Virus genome (UHGV): UHGV-0151769
Source: a virus
DNA length: 11,121 nucleotides
Reading direction: 5' to 3' (one strand)
Shown piece after piece: positions 402 to 11,121 of the stretch (the stretch's first letter is position 1; each line of letters begins with the position of its first letter). Position numbers and translations under genes: made by a program. The notes under the pieces were generated by a model that was given only the letters and a program-made list of their open reading frames with translations, had not been told where the DNA came from and ran no database searches.

Positions 402-2363
402 ATGGCATTTAAACACTATGACGTGGTCAGGGCGGCATCGCCGTCAGACCTTGCGAAACGACTGACACAAAAACTGAAGGAGGGCTGGCAGCCGTTTGGT
501 AGTCCGGTGGCCATAACGCCTTATACCCTGATGCAGGCCATTGCGGCGGAAGGTGATGTCACCACACCTGTGGTGGTGAAGCCGTCGGATGGAGAAGGCG
601 CAGTTATCAGCACCACCAGCAACCCGGAGTATTACTTTGTTGTTGCCCTGGCCGGGCAGTCAAACGGTATGGCGTATGGTGAAGGGCTTCCGCTGCCGGA
701 GACATATGACCGTCCGGACCCGCGTATTAAACAGCTGGCGCGTCGCAGCACTGTCACGCCGGGTGGTGCGTCCTGTAACTACAATGACATTATTCCTGCG
801 GACCACTGCCTGCATGATGTTCAGGATTTGAGTAAGTTTTCACACCCGAAAGCCAGCGCAGCTCAGTATGGATGCGTGGGGCAGGGATTACATATCGCGA
901 AGAAATTGTTGCCGTTTATTCCGGCGAATGCCGGTATTCTTCTGGTTCCGTGCTGCCGTGGTGGTTCTGCATTTTTGGCGGGCGATGAAGGTACCTTCAG
1001 CGAATCCACCGGCGCAAGCGAGACCTCGGCACGCTGGGGTGTTGATAAGCCACTGTACAAGGACCTGCTTACCCGTACTCAGGCCGCACTGAAGGCCAAC
1101 CCTAAAAATATTCTGCTTGCAGTGGTCTGGATGCAGGGCGAGTTTGATTTGAAACAGGGTGCATACGCCACTCAGCCGGGGCTGTTTGATTCCATGGTGG
1201 AAAAATATCGTTCTGACCTGTCGGAATTCGGAGGTCAGTGTCTCGGGGGCTCTCCGTCATCGGTTCCCTGGATTTGTGGCGACACGACCTACTACTGGAA
1301 GCAGACTTATTCTTCGCAATACGATGCGGTGTATGGTGCATACAAGACGAAATCCGCAAAAAAAATCTTCTTTGTGCCGTTTATGACGGATGAAAACGGG
1401 CGAAATGTGGGTACCAACGAGCCGTCAGAAGATCCGGATGTTGCGGATATTGGGTATTACGGAGCCGGTGGTCGAACGGACGCCAAAACCTGGACGACGG
1501 CCGACCGTAAAACGCATTTTGGATCATGGGCACGTCGTGGGATTATTTCCGACCGTCTGGCAACGGCGATTCTTGTGCATGCCGGGAGAAACGCTGAATT
1601 CATTACCGGAAAACAGCCTGATACGGTGAAGCCCACCGGACCTTCCGGTGAAGGTACGGAGAGAGAGCCGGAAGCCCCGGTCAGTAACCGAACCCTGATG
1701 AGTCTGCTGGCGTCCGGCGAAGACCTGGCATCACAGGGCTGGCGCTATTATCACAAACCGGCGAGCGGAGACAATGTTAACAAAAACATTGCTGAAGCGG
1801 TGGTCAGTGATGCGGGGGCTACGGGAGGTAAGGCCCTGCAACTGAATAAACCGGAAAACCACATCTGGTTTCTGGAGCATGATGCAGCCGGACAGGGAGT
1901 GGAGTTACTGAAGAAGGGGGGACGTGTGAGCGTACGGTTTAAGTTGCCGGGTTCACTGGTGCCGAATCAGTTTGCCCTGGGCATTTACTGGCAGTTGTCG
2001 TCCCTGCCGGAGGGAGTGACGCTGGCAGAGGAAGGCAACGACATGCTGATGTCCTTCTTTCTGCAGACGGATGCGACGAACCTGAACGCGATGCACCACA
2101 AGAAGCCGAATGCGAAGCTGGAAACGTTCGGGGTCTTTGATAACGGATGGCACACACTGGCTTTTGAGTTTGCCGGAAACAACAGCATTCAGGTGACGCC
2201 GGTACTGGATGAGAAACGGGGGACGCCGTTCACACTGGTGAAATCTCCGGCATCAGGGGCGGCGGACAAACTGCAACTGACAGGCATATCAAAGGCGGCG
2301 ACATATACGCTGCTGATTGACAGTGTGAAGGTGGAAGTGAACAACGCGGACATCGCGGCATGA
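402..2363 (+). CDS. nanS-p: Prophage NanS-p-type sialate O-acetylesterase (N-terminal DUF1737-like region, SGNH-hydrolase domain, C-terminal putative carbohydrate-binding region)
   Basis: 653-aa ORF with a strong RBS (GGGAGGA, 5 nt before the ATG). A GQSNG block near residue 85 matches the SGNH/sialate-esterase catalytic-serine motif. The N-terminus (MAFKHYDVVRAASPSDLAKRLTQKLKEGWQPFG) matches what I recall of the large ORF downstream of stx in Stx phages such as 933W L0105. Position upstream of the lysis cassette is typical. Confidence 0.8.
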   Translation: MAFKHYDVVRAASPSDLAKRLTQKLKEGWQPFGSPVAITPYTLMQAIAAEGDVTTPVVVKPSDGEGAVISTTSNPEYYFVVALAGQSNGMAYGEGLPLPETYDRPDPRIKQLARRSTVTPGGASCNYNDIIPADHCLHDVQDLSKFSHPKASAAQYGCVGQGLHIAKKLLPFIPANAGILLVPCCRGGSAFLAGDEGTFSESTGASETSARWGVDKPLYKDLLTRTQAALKANPKNILLAVVWMQGEFDLKQGAYATQPGLFDSMVEKYRSDLSEFGGQCLGGSPSSVPWICGDTTYYWKQTYSSQYDAVYGAYKTKSAKKIFFVPFMTDENGRNVGTNEPSEDPDVADIGYYGAGGRTDAKTWTTADRKTHFGSWARRGIISDRLATAILVHAGRNAEFITGKQPDTVKPTGPSGEGTEREPEAPVSNRTLMSLLASGEDLASQGWRYYHKPASGDNVNKNIAEAVVSDAGATGGKALQLNKPENHIWFLEHDAAGQGVELLKKGGRVSVRFKLPGSLVPNQFALGIYWQLSSLPEGVTLAEEGNDMLMSFFLQTDATNLNAMHHKKPNAKLETFGVFDNGWHTLAFEFAGNNSIQVTPVLDEKRGTPFTLVKSPASGAADKLQLTGISKAATYTLLIDSVKVEVNNADIAA

Positions 2364-2401
2364 TAAAAAAAGCCGCCAGCGGCAGGAATGGAAGCTGGCG
2401 G
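2364..2401 (-). terminator. A-tract plus GC hairpin just after the nanS-p stop; reads as a terminator for leftward transcription
   Basis: ATAAAAAAA followed by GCCGCCAGC / GCTGGCGG around a 13-nt loop. There is no T-tract on the + side, so rightward termination is unlikely. Confidence 0.35.
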
Positions 2402-2499
2402 AGGTAATCCCAATGGAGAATGTAAAGAAAAGATGCTTTCGACATCAATCATTTCTAAATGAAAACAGTTCTCATTGTCAACCATAACGGTAAGAAATT

Positions 2500-2682
2500 A
2501 TGACATTTATTCATCAGGTAATGCTGTACTTCTGTATGGCAGTCTGTGTTATGTATCTTCTTTCGGGTGGGTACAGGGCAGTGCGCGATTTCTGGCGCAG
2601 GCAGATTGATAAAAGGGCCGCTGAGAGAATCAGCGCCAGTCAGTCAGCCGGAAGCAAACCCGAAGATCCGCTCATTCCGTAG
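2500..2682 (+). CDS. Hypothetical small protein (60 aa) with a hydrophobic N-terminal segment
   Basis: ORF in an otherwise non-coding gap. The N-terminus (VMLYFCMAVCVMYLLSGG) is hydrophobic. The RBS is weak, so it could be spurious. Confidence 0.3.
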   Translation: MTFIHQVMLYFCMAVCVMYLLSGGYRAVRDFWRRQIDKRAAERISASQSAGSKPEDPLIP

Positions 2683-2719
2683 TCACTTTCTTGACAACAC
2701 CTTTCAACGAGAAAATCCC

Positions 2720-2965
2720 ATGTCAGAAATCACATCCCTGGTCACTGCTGAGGCAGTGAAGGAAGTCCTGCGCTCTGAAGAAGTCCTGAGCGCACTGAAA
2801 CAGAAACTCCGCCAGAACCTTGAGTCGCGTCTTGATGCAGAAGTGGATGCCATTCTGGATGAGCTGCTGGGCGTACCAGCGGTTCCGGAGCCGGAAGGTA
2901 TCGCGGGTGACGGGAGTGCTTCAGATGGCGGTGAACCCACACCTGACAGCGACATGATGATGTAA
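2720..2965 (+). CDS. Hypothetical small acidic, probably helical protein (81 aa)
   Basis: The ORF is continuous from 2546 with no obvious RBS; I chose the ATG at 2720 because the protein from MSEITSLV onward looks like a real helical domain with an acidic tail ([19 protein letters not shown]). It sits just upstream of the holin, where Stx-type phages carry small conserved ORFs. Confidence 0.5.
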
Positions 2966-3041
2966 GCCTGCGCAAGGGACCATCGGTGTGTGCCGGTGGT
3001 CTTTATATTGTTGTGAGCTTCCGGATAACGGGAGACGGGGT

Positions 3042-3257
3042 ATGTACCAGATGGAAAAAATCACAACAGGTGTGTCATACACCACGTCAGCGGTGGGAAC
3101 GGGCTACTGGTTCCTGCAGTTGCTGGACAGGGTTTCCCCGTCTCAGTGGGCGGCAATAGGCGTGCTGGGGAGTCTGCTGTTTGGGCTGCTGACGTACCTG
3201 ACTAACCTGTATTTCAAAATCAAAGAGGACCGGCGTAAGGCGGCGCGGGGAGAGTAA
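3042..3257 (+). CDS. S: Pinholin (phage 21 S21-type class II holin) with dual-start motif
   Basis: 71 aa starting MYQMEKITT (Met1 and Met4 mirror the S21 antiholin/holin pair). Two TMDs ([13 protein letters not shown] and [23 protein letters not shown]) and a basic tail ([13 protein letters not shown]). GGAG lies 7 nt upstream. Strong resemblance to phage 21 S21 as I recall it. Confidence 0.85.
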
Positions 3258-3261
3258 AGTG

Positions 3262-3582
3262 ATGAATAAAAAATATGAACTGGTTGTTAAGGGGATAAAT
3301 AATTACGGGGATAAGGTTACTGTTACTGTGAAGCCGGAAGGTGACGGGCAAGCGTCGCTGTTGTTGCCAGATGTGGCGATTAGTCTTGACCGTACTGAAG
3401 GTGCCACGCTGGAGTTTTACGAAGCTGAGGCGAAAAAGCAGGCGAAGCAGTTTTTCATGGATGTTGCTGCCGGGTTATGTGAATGGAACGAACCGTTGCC
3501 GGAAAAGCGCCCCGTAGCTACCGGGAAGAATTACTTGTTCTCTGAAGATGCCGCCGTCAACACTGCGGTCAGAAAAAGATGA
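3262..3582 (+). CDS. Hypothetical protein (moron ORF A, about 106 aa); unknown function
   Basis: Starts 4 nt after the holin stop (GTG at 3259 or ATG at 3262) with GGGAGAG 7 nt upstream. Predicted soluble and charged, with no motif I recognise. Visibly more AT-rich than flanking lysis genes (by eye, not computed). Confidence 0.55.
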   Translation: MNKKYELVVKGINNYGDKVTVTVKPEGDGQASLLLPDVAISLDRTEGATLEFYEAEAKKQAKQFFMDVAAGLCEWNEPLPEKRPVATGKNYLFSEDAAVNTAVRKR

Positions 3583-4111
3583 TGTTGAATCACGTATTGA
3601 AAAACTGGAGAGCTACGTCGTTGAGCTGAATAAGAAATGGTCGATATTGGTGCCTTCTGGCGATGAAAAGCAGTTTGCTGCGTTTGACGATTATTGTCGG
3701 AAAGTGATGAGCAGAAATCTCGCAGAGTGTTTCAGTATTCATAATGATAATTTCAGTGAGCTGGAATGGGAGTGTAACCGGCCATCCTTTGTTGTATCCG
3801 GTGATGCTGGGAAAATAACCATCTCAGAAAATGGGAAAGTAACACCTCCATCGCACCAGCACAGTGAGGAGCTCATTGAATTTGCCATTGATTACCTGAA
3901 GAACAATAAAAAGCAGGGGCTGATGAAGCGCGTTGGCCGTTGCATGGGATATCTTCAGGTAGCCGCTGAGATTGAAGCGCTGGCCAGTGGTGCTGATAAG
4001 GATGCAATTGTGCGGGAGGCTCTTCTTCGTGATTTTAATACTCCACCCTTTAAAAAAGTGCCGGCTTACTGGCTTCATCCGGGGCTGACTTATCTTAAAG
4101 TGCGTATTTAG
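3548..4111 (+). CDS. Hypothetical protein (moron ORF B, 187 aa); unknown function
   Basis: ORF in the +1 frame relative to ORF A, overlapping it by 35 nt. No TMD, no signal peptide, no recognisable catalytic motif. AT-rich. Ends 36 nt before the endolysin start. The true start is uncertain; this frame is open from 3518. Confidence 0.55.
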   Translation: MPPSTLRSEKDDVESRIEKLESYVVELNKKWSILVPSGDEKQFAAFDDYCRKVMSRNLAECFSIHNDNFSELEWECNRPSFVVSGDAGKITISENGKVTPPSHQHSEELIEFAIDYLKNNKKQGLMKRVGRCMGYLQVAAEIEALASGADKDAIVREALLRDFNTPPFKKVPAYWLHPGLTYLKVRI

Positions 4112-4147
4112 TGGGCCAGGGACAGCGGCTGAATATTTAATATATCC

Positions 4148-4681
4148 ATGAACACCAAAATCAAATACGGCCTGTCGGCTGCCGTTCTGGCGCTGATTGC
4201 CGCTGGTGCGCCTGCGCCTGACATTCTCGACCAGTTTCTGGATGAAAAGGAAGGCAACCACACCACAGCATACCGTGATGGTGCAGGTATCTGGACCATC
4301 TGCCGTGGTGCCATCATGGTGGATGGCAAACCTGTCGTTCCGGGCATGAAGTTGTCGAAGGAAAAATGCGACCAGGTTAACGCCATTGAGCGTGATAAAG
4401 CGCTGGCGTGGGTGGAGAAAAACATCAGAGTGCCGCTGACCGAACCCCAGAAAGCGGGGATCGCGTCATTCTGTCCGTACAACATTGGTCCCGGTAAGTG
4501 TTTCCCGTCGACGTTTTACAGACGAATTAATGCTGGTGATCGAAAAGGTGCCTGCGAAGCGATTCGCTGGTGGATTAAGGACGGTGGCAGAGACTGCCGT
4601 ATTCGTTCAAACAACTGTTACGGTCAGGTATCCCGTCGTGACCAGGAGAGCGCGCTGGCGTGCTGGGGTATCGACAGATAA
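4148..4681 (+). CDS. R: SAR endolysin (T4-lysozyme-family muramidase with N-terminal signal-arrest-release domain)
   Basis: 177 aa. The N-terminal Gly/Ala-rich weakly hydrophobic segment (YGLSAAVLALIAAGAPAP) is a typical SAR domain. The catalytic triad is spaced as in T4 lysozyme and R21: E, then D 9 residues later, then T 6 residues after that (EGNHTTAYRDGAGIWT). Paired with a pinholin. Confidence 0.85.
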   Translation: MNTKIKYGLSAAVLALIAAGAPAPDILDQFLDEKEGNHTTAYRDGAGIWTICRGAIMVDGKPVVPGMKLSKEKCDQVNAIERDKALAWVEKNIRVPLTEPQKAGIASFCPYNIGPGKCFPSTFYRRINAGDRKGACEAIRWWIKDGGRDCRIRSNNCYGQVSRRDQESALACWGIDR

Positions 4682-4837
4682 GCAGAATATTTTGCTGAAA
4701 AATGAGGAATGGCCACGCGGGCGGATAACACGAAATCCTGCGAACTGGCGAAACGTAAGTGAATAAAAGTAAAAACCCCGTTTGTTGGCACCAAGCGAGG
4801 TTTTGTGTTTCTGACCTTGAGTAAGGCAAGGGAGAAC

Positions 4838-5020
4838 ATGGCGAAGTGTAAACGAATTCTGTTGAGGTTGACTATGAAAAATGGCCTTGAACTGAAAGCG
4901 CCTGTAACTGATGACATCAGCAGAGCACTGGCTTTTGCCATTAAGTGGGTGGCGGTCGGTGTTGCTGTGTCCCCGATGCTGTATGGGCTGGCAAAACTGG
5001 TCATTGCGTTGAAATCGTGA
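4838..5020 (+). CDS. Hypothetical small membrane protein (60 aa; alternative start at 4874 gives 48 aa)
   Basis: Basic N-terminus ([12 protein letters not shown]) followed by a hydrophobic segment ([28 protein letters not shown]). An RBS is present for both candidate starts (GGGAG before 4838; GAGG 6 nt before 4874). Confidence 0.4.
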
Positions 5021-5034
5021 AGGGAGGATTAAGC

Positions 5035-5166
5035 ATGTCAGACAAACTCATAACGCTGGCGAAGATCCTCTGTGTAATTGTCGGCATTTCATTTTCACTA
5101 ATGCTGGTTGCTCTTTTTCTTTCCATGGCCTGGATGATGTTGTCTTCGTCGGGGTTGCTGGGGTGA
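5035..5166 (+). CDS. Hypothetical small single-TMD membrane protein (43 aa)
   Basis: Strong RBS (AGGGAGGA) 6 nt before the ATG. One clear TMD ([26 protein letters not shown]). The stop overlaps the Rz start (GTGA), suggesting translational coupling. Confidence 0.5.
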
Positions 5167-5636
5167 ACATAAACCGAATGCTTTCCGCGTTTATCGTTAT
5201 TCTGCTGGTGGCCTGTGGTGCGCTGTGGATGGCAACAGACCATTACCGTGATAACGCGATTACCTACAAAGCGCAGCGCGATAACAAAGCCAGTGAACTG
5301 AAGCTGGCGAACGCAACCATTACTGATATGCAGGTGCGCCAGCGCGATGTTGCTGCGCTCGATGCAAAATACTCGAGGGAATTAGCCGATGCGAGAGCTG
5401 AAAATGAAACTCTTCGCGCTGACGTTGCCGCTGGTCGTAAGCGCCTGCGGATCAACGCCACCTGTCCAGGCTCCGTGCGTGAAGCCCCCACCACCTCCGG
5501 CGTGGATAATGCAACCGGCCCCCAACTGGCAGACACCGTTACACGGGATTATTTCACCCTCAGAGAGCGGCTGATGACGATGCACAAGCAACTGGAAGGG
5601 GCACAGGACTATATCCGCACTCAGTGCCTGAAATAA
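5163..5636 (+). CDS. Rz: Rz i-spanin (inner-membrane spanin subunit)
   Basis: N-terminal TMD, then a coiled-coil region closely resembling lambda Rz as I recall it ([63 protein letters not shown]). Start is GTG 5163 or ATG 5178. Confidence 0.85.
5389..5574 (+). CDS. Rz1: Rz1 o-spanin (outer-membrane lipoprotein) nested in the +1 frame of Rz
   Basis: Entirely inside Rz in another frame. Signal peptide with lipobox (LPLVVSAC) and a proline-rich mature part ([30 protein letters not shown]) matching lambda Rz1. Confidence 0.8.
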
Positions 5637-5946
5637 GTTTTGTTGATGCGCCGTATCGTCGCTATATTCCCTCATTAACAGAGACCGCAGCCCGACAGGG
5701 AGACTCCTCTGCGCGAGTGTGCGGGGATAATTAAAAACGATGCACACCGGGTTTTTACCGCGTTAATGATTCGCGGGTTTATCCCGGTGCGATGGTGGAA
5801 GAAACAGGAAGCTGTATTACAGAAAGTGCTACTACTGTATCCCGATGCGATGTATGTAATGTGAGTCAGATAATGGCACAGGATGTGGTGATGTGGCAGT
5901 CTGGAACACAGGATATATTGTCAGAATAAGACCCGTAGGAATAAAA

Positions 5947-6273
5947 ATGAAAAGACGCCTTTTACTACTTTTTCTGTTATCTGTCCTGGCAGTGGGATGC
6001 TCACAGCAAAAAGCTGATGAGCCCCGGCAATTAGTGACGGTGTATCCACGATATCCGGAATATGCTGCAGCAAATTATATCAAGGGGCTGGTTGAGGTTA
6101 AGTTCGATATTGGTGCTGATGGGACTGTGACACGGATCGTTTTTCTCCGCTCAGAGCCTCATAATTTGTTTCGTGATGAAGTGGTGAAGGCCATGGCGAA
6201 ATGGCGATTTGAAAAGAATCGCCCCTGTCAGGGAGTGAAGAGACAATTTATCTTTACGCCGTCACGTCCCTGA
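5947..6273 (+). CDS. Prophage lipoprotein with a TonB C-terminal-like domain (108 aa); probable moron
   Basis: AGGA 6 nt upstream. Signal peptide with lipobox (LLSVLAVGC). The C-terminal part (GLVEVKFDIGADGTVTRIVFLRSEPHNLFRDEVVKAMAKWRFE) lines up block by block with the E. coli TonB C-terminal domain as I recall it ([43 protein letters not shown]). Confidence 0.7.
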   Translation: MKRRLLLLFLLSVLAVGCSQQKADEPRQLVTVYPRYPEYAAANYIKGLVEVKFDIGADGTVTRIVFLRSEPHNLFRDEVVKAMAKWRFEKNRPCQGVKRQFIFTPSRP

Positions 6274-6395
6274 TGCTTCCAGGTAGAGAGGGGCTGGACG
6301 CAGGAGAAAAATGAAAGAGCCAGCGGTTATATTTTTGTCATGGCTGACGAGGAATGATGGAAGAAGGCGTTGTATGCCACACAACGCCTCACTGT

Positions 6396-6575
6396 TCATT
6401 TCTTCTTTTTCTCTGGTGGAACCCGATGAATAAGAGTTGCACTGGTTTCCGATGAGATGGCGATATACTCGGGCAAAGTATGCTGGCAGTTTTCCAACTG
6501 GTCAAAAATACCTGCTCTCGTCTGTTGCAATGCCTGCAGCATGCGGCGGCAATGCGCCTTGCTTTTACTAACCAT
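6396..6575 (-). CDS. Hypothetical small protein (59 aa counted from the internal Met that has an RBS)
   Basis: The leftward ORF is open from 6749, but only the ATG at 6575 has a good RBS (AGGAAGGAAAG). Ends in a lysine run (PPEKKKK). No function recognised. Confidence 0.25.
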   Translation of the reverse strand: MVSKSKAHCRRMLQALQQTRAGIFDQLENCQHTLPEYIAISSETSATLIHRVPPEKKKK

Positions 6576-6636
6576 CTTTCCTTCCTCTATCAGTCGCTGC
6601 GTGAACTCATCATGTAATACCAGGTAAATGCGGATG

Positions 6637-6888
6637 TTATCGGTTTTGGCTACGCAGCATAGTACAAAACGGACAGGTGCATCCCGGGACGGGGGAGGCG
6701 TCACATGTCCCTGTGATGGTTGTTCCGGGTAATGCACTGTGTGGGGCATAAAAATGTCCGATAATTTTACTTTCTACCGCAGTTAGTTGATTCGTTGGTC
6801 CTGGTAGCACATTGGGCGAGGATTTAAATGCCAGGCAACTGAAGGATGATGTTGCAAGGGAGATAGCGAGAATATTTCTGATTTTCAT
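6637..6888 (-). CDS. Hypothetical small secreted, Cys-rich protein (83 aa)
   Basis: Leftward ORF with GAGG 9 nt upstream of the ATG. Signal-peptide-like N-terminus (MKIRNILAISLATSSFSCLA). Overlaps the next leftward ORF frame out of phase; may be one arm of a frameshifted gene. Confidence 0.3.
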   Translation of the reverse strand: MKIRNILAISLATSSFSCLAFKSSPNVLPGPTNQLTAVESKIIGHFYAPHSALPGTTITGTCDASPVPGCTCPFCTMLRSQNR

Positions 6889-7036
6889 TTGATGATGCCT
6901 CTGTGTGAAATGACGGTAAACGACGCACTTGTGCCGGCACATAATAGCAAGCACCATAATAGATCAGATTCGATTCTTGCTGTAAGTGATAATCATTCTC
7001 GTTTTCGGGTCCTTTCCGTCGATCCAACAGGTTACG

Positions 7037-7048
7037 GGGCGGCGACCT
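7037..7048. other. cosN: lambda-type 12-nt cohesive-end sequence
   Basis: Exact string GGGCGGCGACCT, preceded by ACAGGTTACG (lambda right end) and followed by CGCGGGTTTTCGCTATTTATGAAAATTTTCCGG (lambda left end), all as I recall the lambda termini. Confidence 0.9.
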
Positions 7049-7225
7049 CGCGGGTTTTCGCTATTTATGAAAATTTTCCGGTTTAAGGCGTTTCCGTTCT
7101 TCTTCGTCATAACTTAATGTTTTTATTTAAAATACCCTCTGAAAAGAAAGGAAACGACAGGTGCTGAAAACGAGCTTTTGGGCCTCTGTCGTTTCCTTTC
7201 TCTGTTTTTGGCCGTGGAATGAACA
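7049..7225 (+). promoter_or_regulatory. cosB region (terminase small-subunit binding sites and IHF site) between cosN and Nu1
   Basis: Sequence matches the lambda left-end leader as I recall it. It contains the inverted pair AAAGGAAACGACAG (7147-7160) and CTGTCGTTTCCTTT (7186-7199), consistent with R-element repeats. Individual R1/R2/R3/I1 boundaries are not assigned. Confidence 0.7.
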
Positions 7226-7745
7226 ATGGAAGTCAACAAAAAGCAGCTGGCTGACATTTTCGGTGCGAGTATCCGTACCATTCAGAACTGGCAGGAACAG
7301 GGAATGCCCGTTCTGCGAGGCGGTGGCAAGGGTAATGAGGTGCTTTATGACTCTGCCGCCGTTATAAGATGGTATGCCGAAAGGGATGCTGAAATTGAGA
7401 ACGAAAAGCTGCGCCGGGAAGTTGAAGAACTGCGGCAGGCCAGCGAGACAGATCTCCAGCCAGGGACTATTGAGTACGAACGCCACCGACTTACGCGTGC
7501 ACAGGCCGACGCACAGGAGCTGAAAAATGCCAGAGACTCCGCTGAAGTGGTGGAAACCGCATTCTGTACTTTCGTGCTGTCGCGGATCGCAGGTGAAATT
7601 GCCAGTATTCTCGACGGGATCCCCCTGTCGGTGCAGCGGCGTTTTCCGGAACTGGAAAACCGACATGTTGATTTCCTGAAACGGGATATCATCAAAGCCA
7701 TGAACAAAGCAGCCGCGCTGGATGAACTGATACCGGGGTTGCTGA

Positions 7746-7771
<26 letters not shown>
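7226..7771 (+). CDS. Nu1: Terminase small subunit gpNu1
   Basis: 181 aa, MEVNKKQLADIFGASIRTIQNWQEQGMPVLRGGGKGNEVLYDSAAV..., essentially the lambda Nu1 sequence including the N-terminal winged-HTH. Sits immediately downstream of cos and overlaps the A start. Confidence 0.95.
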
Positions 7772-11023
<3,252 letters not shown>

Positions 11024-11121
11024 GGCACTGTTGCAAATAGTCGGTGGTGATAAACTTATCATCCCTTTTTGCTGATGGAGCTGCACATGAACCCATTCAA
11101 AGGCCGGCATTTTCAGCGTGA
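11024..11121 (+). mobile_element. IS26-like (IS6 family) insertion sequence, left end only; continues beyond the window
   Basis: The 14-bp terminal inverted repeat GGCACTGTTGCAAA at 11024-11037 is followed by TAGTCGGTGGTGATAAACTTATCATCCC...GCTGATGGAGCTGCAC and the transposase start, which is the IS26 left end as I recall it. One base in the CCCTTTTT run may differ from my memory of the canonical copy. Confidence 0.85.
11087..11121 (+). CDS. tnpA: IS26-type transposase (Tnp26, DDE), 5' fragment only
   Basis: ATG at 11087 translating to MNPFKGRHFQR..., the known N-terminus of the IS26 transposase. Truncated by the window end. Confidence 0.8.
   Translation, partial: MNPFKGRHFQR

Follow-up and report, generated by a model that had tools for sequence, protein, structure and literature searches.

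A 41-bp gap upstream of a short A-run separates two overlapping reading frames that match the halves of one YdfR/DUF1327 gene in a putative lambdoid prophage of Escherichia coli

Organization of the locus

The window, by which we mean the whole stretch of 11,121 nt that was analysed (UHGV virus genome UHGV-0151769), has the gene content of the late part of an E. coli prophage of lambdoid (Stx-phage-like) type. Pfam matches identify a NanS-p-type esterase with DUF1737, SASA and DUF6645 domains (402-2363) and a DUF826 protein (2720-2965), followed on the plus strand by a P21-type class II holin (3042..3257; PF04971 Phage_holin_2_1, 112.8 bits), for which identical RefSeq loci give the name "class II holin family protein". 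Immediately downstream of the holin gene lies ORF A, which overlaps ORF B, and immediately downstream of ORF B lies an endolysin gene, also on the plus strand (4148..4681; PF00959 Phage_lysozyme, 86.5 bits; "lysozyme" in RefSeq). Beyond the endolysin are Rz (5163-5636; PF03245), with Rz1 embedded in it in the +1 frame (5389-5574; PF06085), a 108-aa TonB_C protein in the place where lambda has bor (5947-6273; PF03544, 49 bits; "TonB family protein" in RefSeq), the terminase genes nu1 (7226-7771) and gpA (7746-9671; both by Pfam), and a lambda-family portal gene recognized by Pfam from 9871 onward. The TonB_C protein has a lipoprotein-like N-terminus, and minus-strand ORFs are present at 6396-7110. 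ORFs A and B lie in a lysis cassette, and the order of holin, YdfR and endolysin genes is the same in loci L001-L005 and L023-L025.

Over positions 1-51 the window has adapter sequence: CGGCGACCACCGAGATCTACACTCTTTCCCTACACGACGCTCTTCCGATCT is an exact suffix match to the Illumina TruSeq universal (P5) adapter, covering its 3' part, which indicates that the contig was built from untrimmed short reads. At the other end, positions 11024-11121 are the left end of IS26 (GGCACTGTTGCAAA...), reaching as far as where the transposase gene begins; thousands of plasmids carry an IS26 family transposase region of 100% identity to it. This end abuts the portal gene at 11023/11024 and cuts it to 389 codons, compared with about 533 in relatives, and the truncated product is not on record. 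Either IS26 has really inserted into the prophage, or the contig simply stops in a repeat.

A check of the reading frames shows that ORF A runs on the plus strand from GTG 3259 or ATG 3262 to a TGA at 3580-3582, and that ORF B, in the +1 frame relative to it and on the same strand, runs from ATG 3548 to a TAG at 4109-4111. The relatives are annotated from the ATG, and GTG 3259 is an alternative upstream start. The two ORFs overlap out of frame over 35 nt (3548-3582), and frame B is open from 3518, with a TAG directly before it at 3515-3517. The first-pass annotation had given the overlap length, the start of ORF B and the opening of frame B correctly; it had placed the stop of ORF A at 3583-3585, which is TGT. 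The sequence AGAAAAAGATGATG at 3571-3584, with a run of five A residues (A5) at 3573-3577, lies in and around the overlap. When one A is removed from this run in silico the two frames are fused (...AVRKDDVESRIEKLE...), giving 284 codons from the GTG or 283 from the ATG, close to the single protein of about 290 aa that had been predicted earlier.

The signals for translation differ between the two ORFs. ORF A is preceded by a strong Shine-Dalgarno sequence, GGGGAGA, with an anti-Shine-Dalgarno duplex of -8.0 kcal/mol, and the best such duplex at ATG 3548 of ORF B is +0.2 kcal/mol, in a weak test in which the start of the endolysin gene scores poorly too. No promoter-like site was found in window 2950-4250.

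One reading frame in the relatives, two in the window

The relatives read this locus in one frame. When window 3230-4150 was searched by megablast against 5,426 complete E. coli genomes, 490 genomes covered at least 80% of the query, and the best matches were 100% identical but in two pieces, spanning 962 bases against 921 in the window. In E. coli ATCC 25922 (L003), window 3230-3516 corresponds to positions 1501-1787 and window 3516-4150 to positions 1828-2462, with zero mismatches and 41 bases extra in L003; hundreds of other genomes likewise match both flanks at 100% and carry the additional 41 bases. In L003 a single ORF (296/297 codons; 296 counted from the ATG) runs through the gene without a break and reads ...EKRPV-ILEAQDVLITYKGK-LPGRITCSLKMPPSTLRSEKDDVESRIEKLE... 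across the junction site. The 41 bp are likewise present, together with a single ORF, in every one of L001-L005 and L009, and five more versions (MZ1211, 13P477T, Stx2_95, Stx2-86 and the P0061 allele) have a single ORF of 268-329 codons in which the overlap stretch is read in frame B. MZ1211, 13P477T, Stx2_95 and Stx2 phage 86 contain the 41-bp segment or a close variant of it in this single-ORF layout. The frame is continuous even in 13P477T, whose N-terminal domain is strongly diverged; the version of Stx2a phage Stx2_95 has 329 aa, and that of Stx2 phage 86, annotated as "YdfR family protein", has 268 aa.

Pairwise and multiple alignments place the junction at 3516..3517 on the plus strand, with an ambiguity of 1 nt. 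What is missing there is AATTTTAGAGGCGCAGGATGTGTTGATAACCTACAAAGGAA, the 41 bp of all relatives, amounting to codons 86-98 and two bases of codon 99 and lying about 57 nt upstream of the A-run. The relatives therefore hold extra sequence, with a length that is not a multiple of three, which restores one ORF. Upstream of the junction, codons 1-85 (Met1 to Val85; 3262..3516, plus strand) form the native 5' part of the gene, 100% identical to L003 1533-1787, and Val85 (GTA, 3514-3516) is the final native codon of ORF A. Since 41 is 3 x 13 + 2, ORF A then continues through wrong codons to the first TGA: its aligned tail (3517..3582, plus strand) consists of 21 non-native codons (ATGKNYLFSEDAAVNTAVRKR) and the chance stop at 3580-3582, over a stretch that all relatives read in the other frame as LPGRITCSLKMPPSTLRSEKDD. 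The native frame resumes at Leu100 (CTA, 3518-3520) and continues to the normal stop; this remainder (3518..4111, plus strand), which comprises codons 100-296 and the stop and encodes the end of the linker, the coiled-coil region and the conserved C-terminal module, is 100% identical to L003 1829-2423. In the alignments the ATG of ORF B (3548..3550, plus strand) is an internal codon of the intact protein, Met110, without a Shine-Dalgarno sequence, and it is not conserved, being Thr in the Stx2_95 and P0058 alleles (SLKMPP versus SLKTPP).

Two features of the layout that might appear meaningful are mechanical by-products of this one junction. Comparison with the intact alignment shows that the TAG closing frame B upstream of 3518 (3515..3517, plus strand) is made by the junction, with its T from the left flank and its G from the right flank. 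The 35-nt overlap has no significance in itself, since any frameshifting lesion yields such an overlap, and the out-of-frame run of ORF A past the junction, exactly 21 codons, has the length expected by chance (64/3, or about 21 codons). Taking a real deletion and an assembly artefact together, ORF A and ORF B are almost certainly the two halves of one gene separated by a 41-nt gap.

The gene and its modular family

Profile matches assign the split gene to the long form of YdfR/DUF1327 (phrog_1085), which has 296 codons when intact and lies between a P21-type holin and an endolysin in a lambdoid prophage of E. coli. ORF A matches Pfam PF07041 (DUF1327) with 129.4 bits over its residues 1-93 and positions 1-86 of the 93 in the profile, against a gathering score of 25 bits, and the intact relatives score 137-152 bits. 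The PHROG family phrog_1085 has 296 positions, of which the intact ATCC 25922 protein matches 1-296, ORF A 1-87 and ORF B 110-296. Neither the Pfam nor the PHROG match of ORF A reaches beyond residues 86-93. No single polypeptide of the window matches phrog_1085 from end to end, which marks this copy as a disrupted member of the family.

The family is built of an N-terminal DUF1327 domain, a variable linker, a coiled-coil segment with optional inserts and a conserved C-terminal module. Modelled with AlphaFold2 at low confidence (mean pLDDT 48), the intact form shows a β/α N-module at about residues 5-72 and a C-module at 191-255, with a low-confidence linker at 73-118, in which the deleted residues lie, and helices at 119-170 between them; on this model the intact protein looks like two modules rather than one compact fold. 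In the P0061 allele the linker has been swapped for an unrelated cassette. We considered whether that linker (…NNAYNTIQSEKDD) might be a frame-shifted and re-corrected version of the same DNA and rejected this, since homology resumes only at GTCAGAAAAAGATGAT. The short YdfR of K-12 has been reported to use residues 1-72 to bind RNase E in its catalytic half and to co-purify with RNA, which it possibly binds (PMC13232886).

By sequence comparison the YdfR family appears highly mosaic. In L017-L021 (2501-3397) and L022 (452-1009), a standalone C-module gene of 213 or 185 aa directly follows the holin gene, and in L017-L021 a gene for a 75-aa DUF1327 fragment comes after it, so that the order of the modules is reversed relative to the fused form.

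Pfam covers only the N-terminal DUF1327 domain of the long-form protein, and none of the NCBIfam models matches it. RefSeq/PGAP gives even the intact ORF of 296 codons a pseudogene label ("YdfR family protein; incomplete; missing C-terminus"), annotating the first 336 nt only (L003 1533-1868, L004 2706-3041, L005 2218-2553) and leaving the rest unannotated, although these ORFs are in fact uninterrupted. A family model limited to the N-terminal domain seems to have caused this pseudogene call, which would then be an annotation artefact.

Distribution of the split and intact forms

The intact gene is common, and the split junction was found in a single other assembly. A 44-nt junction query with 22 nt on each side was used, in which a megablast word can seed only where the deletion is shared. 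It matched none of the 5,426 complete E. coli genomes, 573 of which carry the locus with the 41 bp present, and none of 50,697 phage records; the exact 30-mer of the junction was absent from IMG/VR, GTDB representatives and JGI metagenomes. In contrast, the exact intact 296-aa sequence occurs on 966 contigs in a protein database, and the clusters formed by long single-ORF versions count 962, 648 and 584 members. The exact product of ORF A with its nonsense tail is on record once, in the ENA metagenome scaffold L006 (ERZ28634831 / VCHO16-1_SAMN05971691 scaffold_7261), which is 6,635 nt long, corresponds to window 447-7081 and has the same junction. L006 differs from the window by 4 mismatches, all in window 485-515 near its contig start. 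Since the two are near-identical and the mismatches are clustered at a contig end, L006 and the window may come from the same sample or strain.

Two further observations concern L006. The differences at 485-515 fall within 31 nt inside the multi-copy NanS-p-type esterase gene, and they are probably due to mixing of paralogues at the contig end rather than to strain divergence. In addition, the last position of the window covered by L006 is 7081, and precisely over the following stretch, 7082-7369, which lies just upstream of nu1, similarity to MZ1211, the closest complete genome, disappears; that segment is either another mosaic boundary or an assembly breakpoint.

The exact product of ORF B is found on 37 contigs. 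We rejected these as independent split alleles, as the places examined were truncations at contig starts (with the gene start at nt 12-130 of the contig), scaffolds with N gaps (L015 and L007), a messy chimeric scaffold, or L006 itself. Many contigs start within about 60 nt of the 41-bp segment, which is thus a recurrent breakpoint of short-read assembly, and runs of ten N lie inside the segment in L015 (329-338) and L007 (about 1950-1959). A likely cause of the breakpoint is the presence of several co-resident prophages that share one half of the gene and not the other.

Competing explanations

The first-pass annotation had centred on the A5 run and had offered a gene broken by a homopolymer indel, a genuine coupled gene pair, or a programmed frameshift, and had proposed a comparison of orthologues. 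That comparison gives one long ORF in the relatives, as a single gene would, and an A5 that is unchanged among them, which speaks against an indel in the run. Hence the idea of one broken gene stands, and the lesion moves from the homopolymer to the 41 bp missing upstream. The run (3573..3577, plus strand) is natively read as TCA GAA AAA GAT (S-E-K-D) and is invariant in the intact relatives: AGAAAAAGA is identical in every intact relative examined, and the exact context GGTCAGAAAAAGATGATG is present in 14 fetched loci. An insertion lengthening A4 to A5, whether by mutation or by sequencing error, that split a gene of about 284 codons would agree with the in silico fusion of the frames, but the fused product lacks residues 86-99 and carries 20 wrong residues that match no relative, and the 41-bp difference wholly explains the change of frame, so that an A-run insertion is hardly credible. 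We regard as similarly far-fetched a programmed +1 ribosomal frameshift at A-AAA-AGA that would make a fused protein from both frames. In principle, tRNA-Lys might re-pair from AAA 3574-3576 to AAA 3575-3577, before a rare AGA and with a stop nearby. However, the homologues read the same nucleotides in one frame and need no frameshift, and the two-frame architecture is not conserved but limited to this one allele. Moreover, no stable RNA structure was found in the 90 nt downstream of the A-run (MFE -15.1 kcal/mol against a shuffle mean of -16.25, z = 0.40). Both the A5 indel and the programmed frameshift were therefore rejected on comparative grounds, although low-level accidental slippage at A-AAA-A of ORF A may occur. 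The coupled pair falls as well, since the orthologues encode one ORF and not two, and the same two overlapping ORFs recur only in the near-identical scaffold L006.

With the lesion placed at the junction, what has to be weighed is whether the 41 bp are missing from the organism or only from the assembly. We consider that the loss is probably a real deletion in the sequenced DNA. The less likely account is an assembly artefact: the gene of the organism would have all its 296 codons, the 41 bp would have dropped out when a short-read or metagenome assembler linked contig ends across a repeat or mosaic boundary, and the two ORFs would not exist as such in the organism. It is favoured by the absence of the junction from all the curated and complete collections searched, with a metagenome scaffold as its sole other occurrence, and by the N10 gaps within the same 41-bp segment in L015, which has the same naming scheme as L006, and in the isolate scaffold L007. 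The contigs behind most public gene calls of ORF B have their start in this region, the window resembles a raw short-read contig in its 51 nt of adapter at the beginning and its IS26 repeat at the end, and the site is a mosaic boundary, with 13P477T and L013 diverging from the window immediately upstream. On the other hand, De Bruijn graph assemblers normally make no clean 41-bp loss on 1 nt of shared sequence without read support, and a scaffolder marks a join with Ns, of which L015 and L007 are examples, instead of making it silently. In addition, the identical junction is found in two assemblies of different extent (11,121 and 6,635 nt), and its presence in a second assembly with different contig ends argues for read support. 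Microhomology of only 1 nt at the junction, which leaves no obvious slippage mechanism, speaks against a real deletion. If the deletion is real, an improbable variant of that account is a functional gene fission, in which both halves would work as separate proteins, one a DUF1327 module and the other a coiled coil with the C-terminal module; ORF B would then be translated by reinitiation or coupling, with ORF A terminating 32 nt downstream of the ATG of ORF B. Fission is kept among the readings because both modules occur alone in nature: C-module genes of 185 and 213 aa stand directly after the holin in other prophages, and N-only forms have 162-211 aa (103 aa in K-12 YdfR). The break also falls within the low-confidence, variable linker, and residues 1-72, through which K-12 YdfR reportedly binds RNase E (PMC13232886), are still present in ORF A. 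Fission is made doubtful by an ORF B start without a Shine-Dalgarno sequence (+0.2 kcal/mol) or a promoter, by the lack of conservation of Met110, and by a layout that is confined to one lineage and so gives no sign of selection. Furthermore, the natural standalone C-module genes have a distinct N-terminus of their own and sit 4 nt after the holin stop, unlike ORF B.

A real deletion would leave a pseudogene that makes a truncated DUF1327 fragment. Translation would begin at the normal start, pass through 85 native codons and then 21 out-of-frame codons, and end at the chance TGA at 3580-3582. The rest of the gene would stay open in its native frame, now +1 relative to the start, where an ORF finder would restart at the internal Met110 (ATG 3548). 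ORF B is probably poorly expressed, and the C-terminal part of the protein is probably translated poorly or left untranslated. A repeat-mediated origin of the deletion was considered and rejected: the flanks share only 1 nt, and the nearby imperfect repeat GGAAAAGC/GGAAAGC would give another junction.

Implications

The overlapping pair represents an ordinary copy, disrupted or mis-assembled, of a phage gene whose family is known, and it is neither a recoding site nor an evolved overlapping gene pair. Its value lies mainly in annotation hygiene, for an overlap across a short homopolymer can mimic recoding or a sequencing error while comparison with close relatives puts the lesion elsewhere, here at 41 bp lost upstream. 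Between holin and endolysin, the YdfR/DUF1327 gene combines separable modules in a mosaic, joined by a variable linker at which short-read assemblies habitually break, and RefSeq labels even its intact long forms as pseudogenes. None of these points would surprise a specialist, and they open no new question. Should the improbable fission prove true, the window would have caught a two-module phage protein while splitting in its variable linker, in keeping with the mosaic YdfR family.

Comparison with known systems

The closest counterparts are the long-form YdfR genes themselves. Those of ATCC 25922-type prophages (296 aa) are the same gene in the same slot between holin and endolysin, with DNA that matches at 100% on either side of the junction, and the long-form relatives also include gp05 of Stx2-converting phage 86 (YP_794052.1, 268 aa) and the Stx2_95 protein (BCI50300.1, 329 aa), again the same gene in the same slot. 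All of these are single ORFs, whereas the copy in the window lacks 41 bp and is split into two out-of-frame pieces; combined, the halves in ORF A and ORF B give an end-to-end match to the phrog_1085 profile, as the intact ATCC 25922 protein does. The N-terminal DUF1327 module (PF07041) of ORF A also occurs in K-12 YdfR, a protein of the Qin prophage (P76160, 103 aa), but the latter is a natural short form without the coiled coil and the C-terminal module, whereas ORF A is a truncation with a nonsense tail of 21 residues. Similarly, the standalone C-module genes (185 and 213 aa, MNHEEMNQRF...) found in the same slot in other E. coli prophages are 60-86% identical to the region of ORF B. Each has an N-terminus of its own and a start 4 nt past the holin stop, in contrast to ORF B, which starts at an internal Met without a ribosome-binding site.

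The resemblance to systems in which two frames are used for a purpose is looser. Sites of programmed +1 frameshifting, such as that of prfB, have a run that allows the tRNA to re-pair close to an in-frame stop. The A5 run of the window is superficially like them in having a re-pairing run close to an in-frame stop, but its two-frame layout is not conserved and lacks a stimulatory element, and the homologues read one frame. The Rz/Rz1 spanin genes of the same window are likewise two same-strand ORFs in different frames in a phage lysis cassette. Rz and Rz1, however, each have a Pfam family of their own and form a pair that is conserved across phages, whereas the overlap of ORF A and ORF B is limited to one allele and its out-of-frame part matches nothing.
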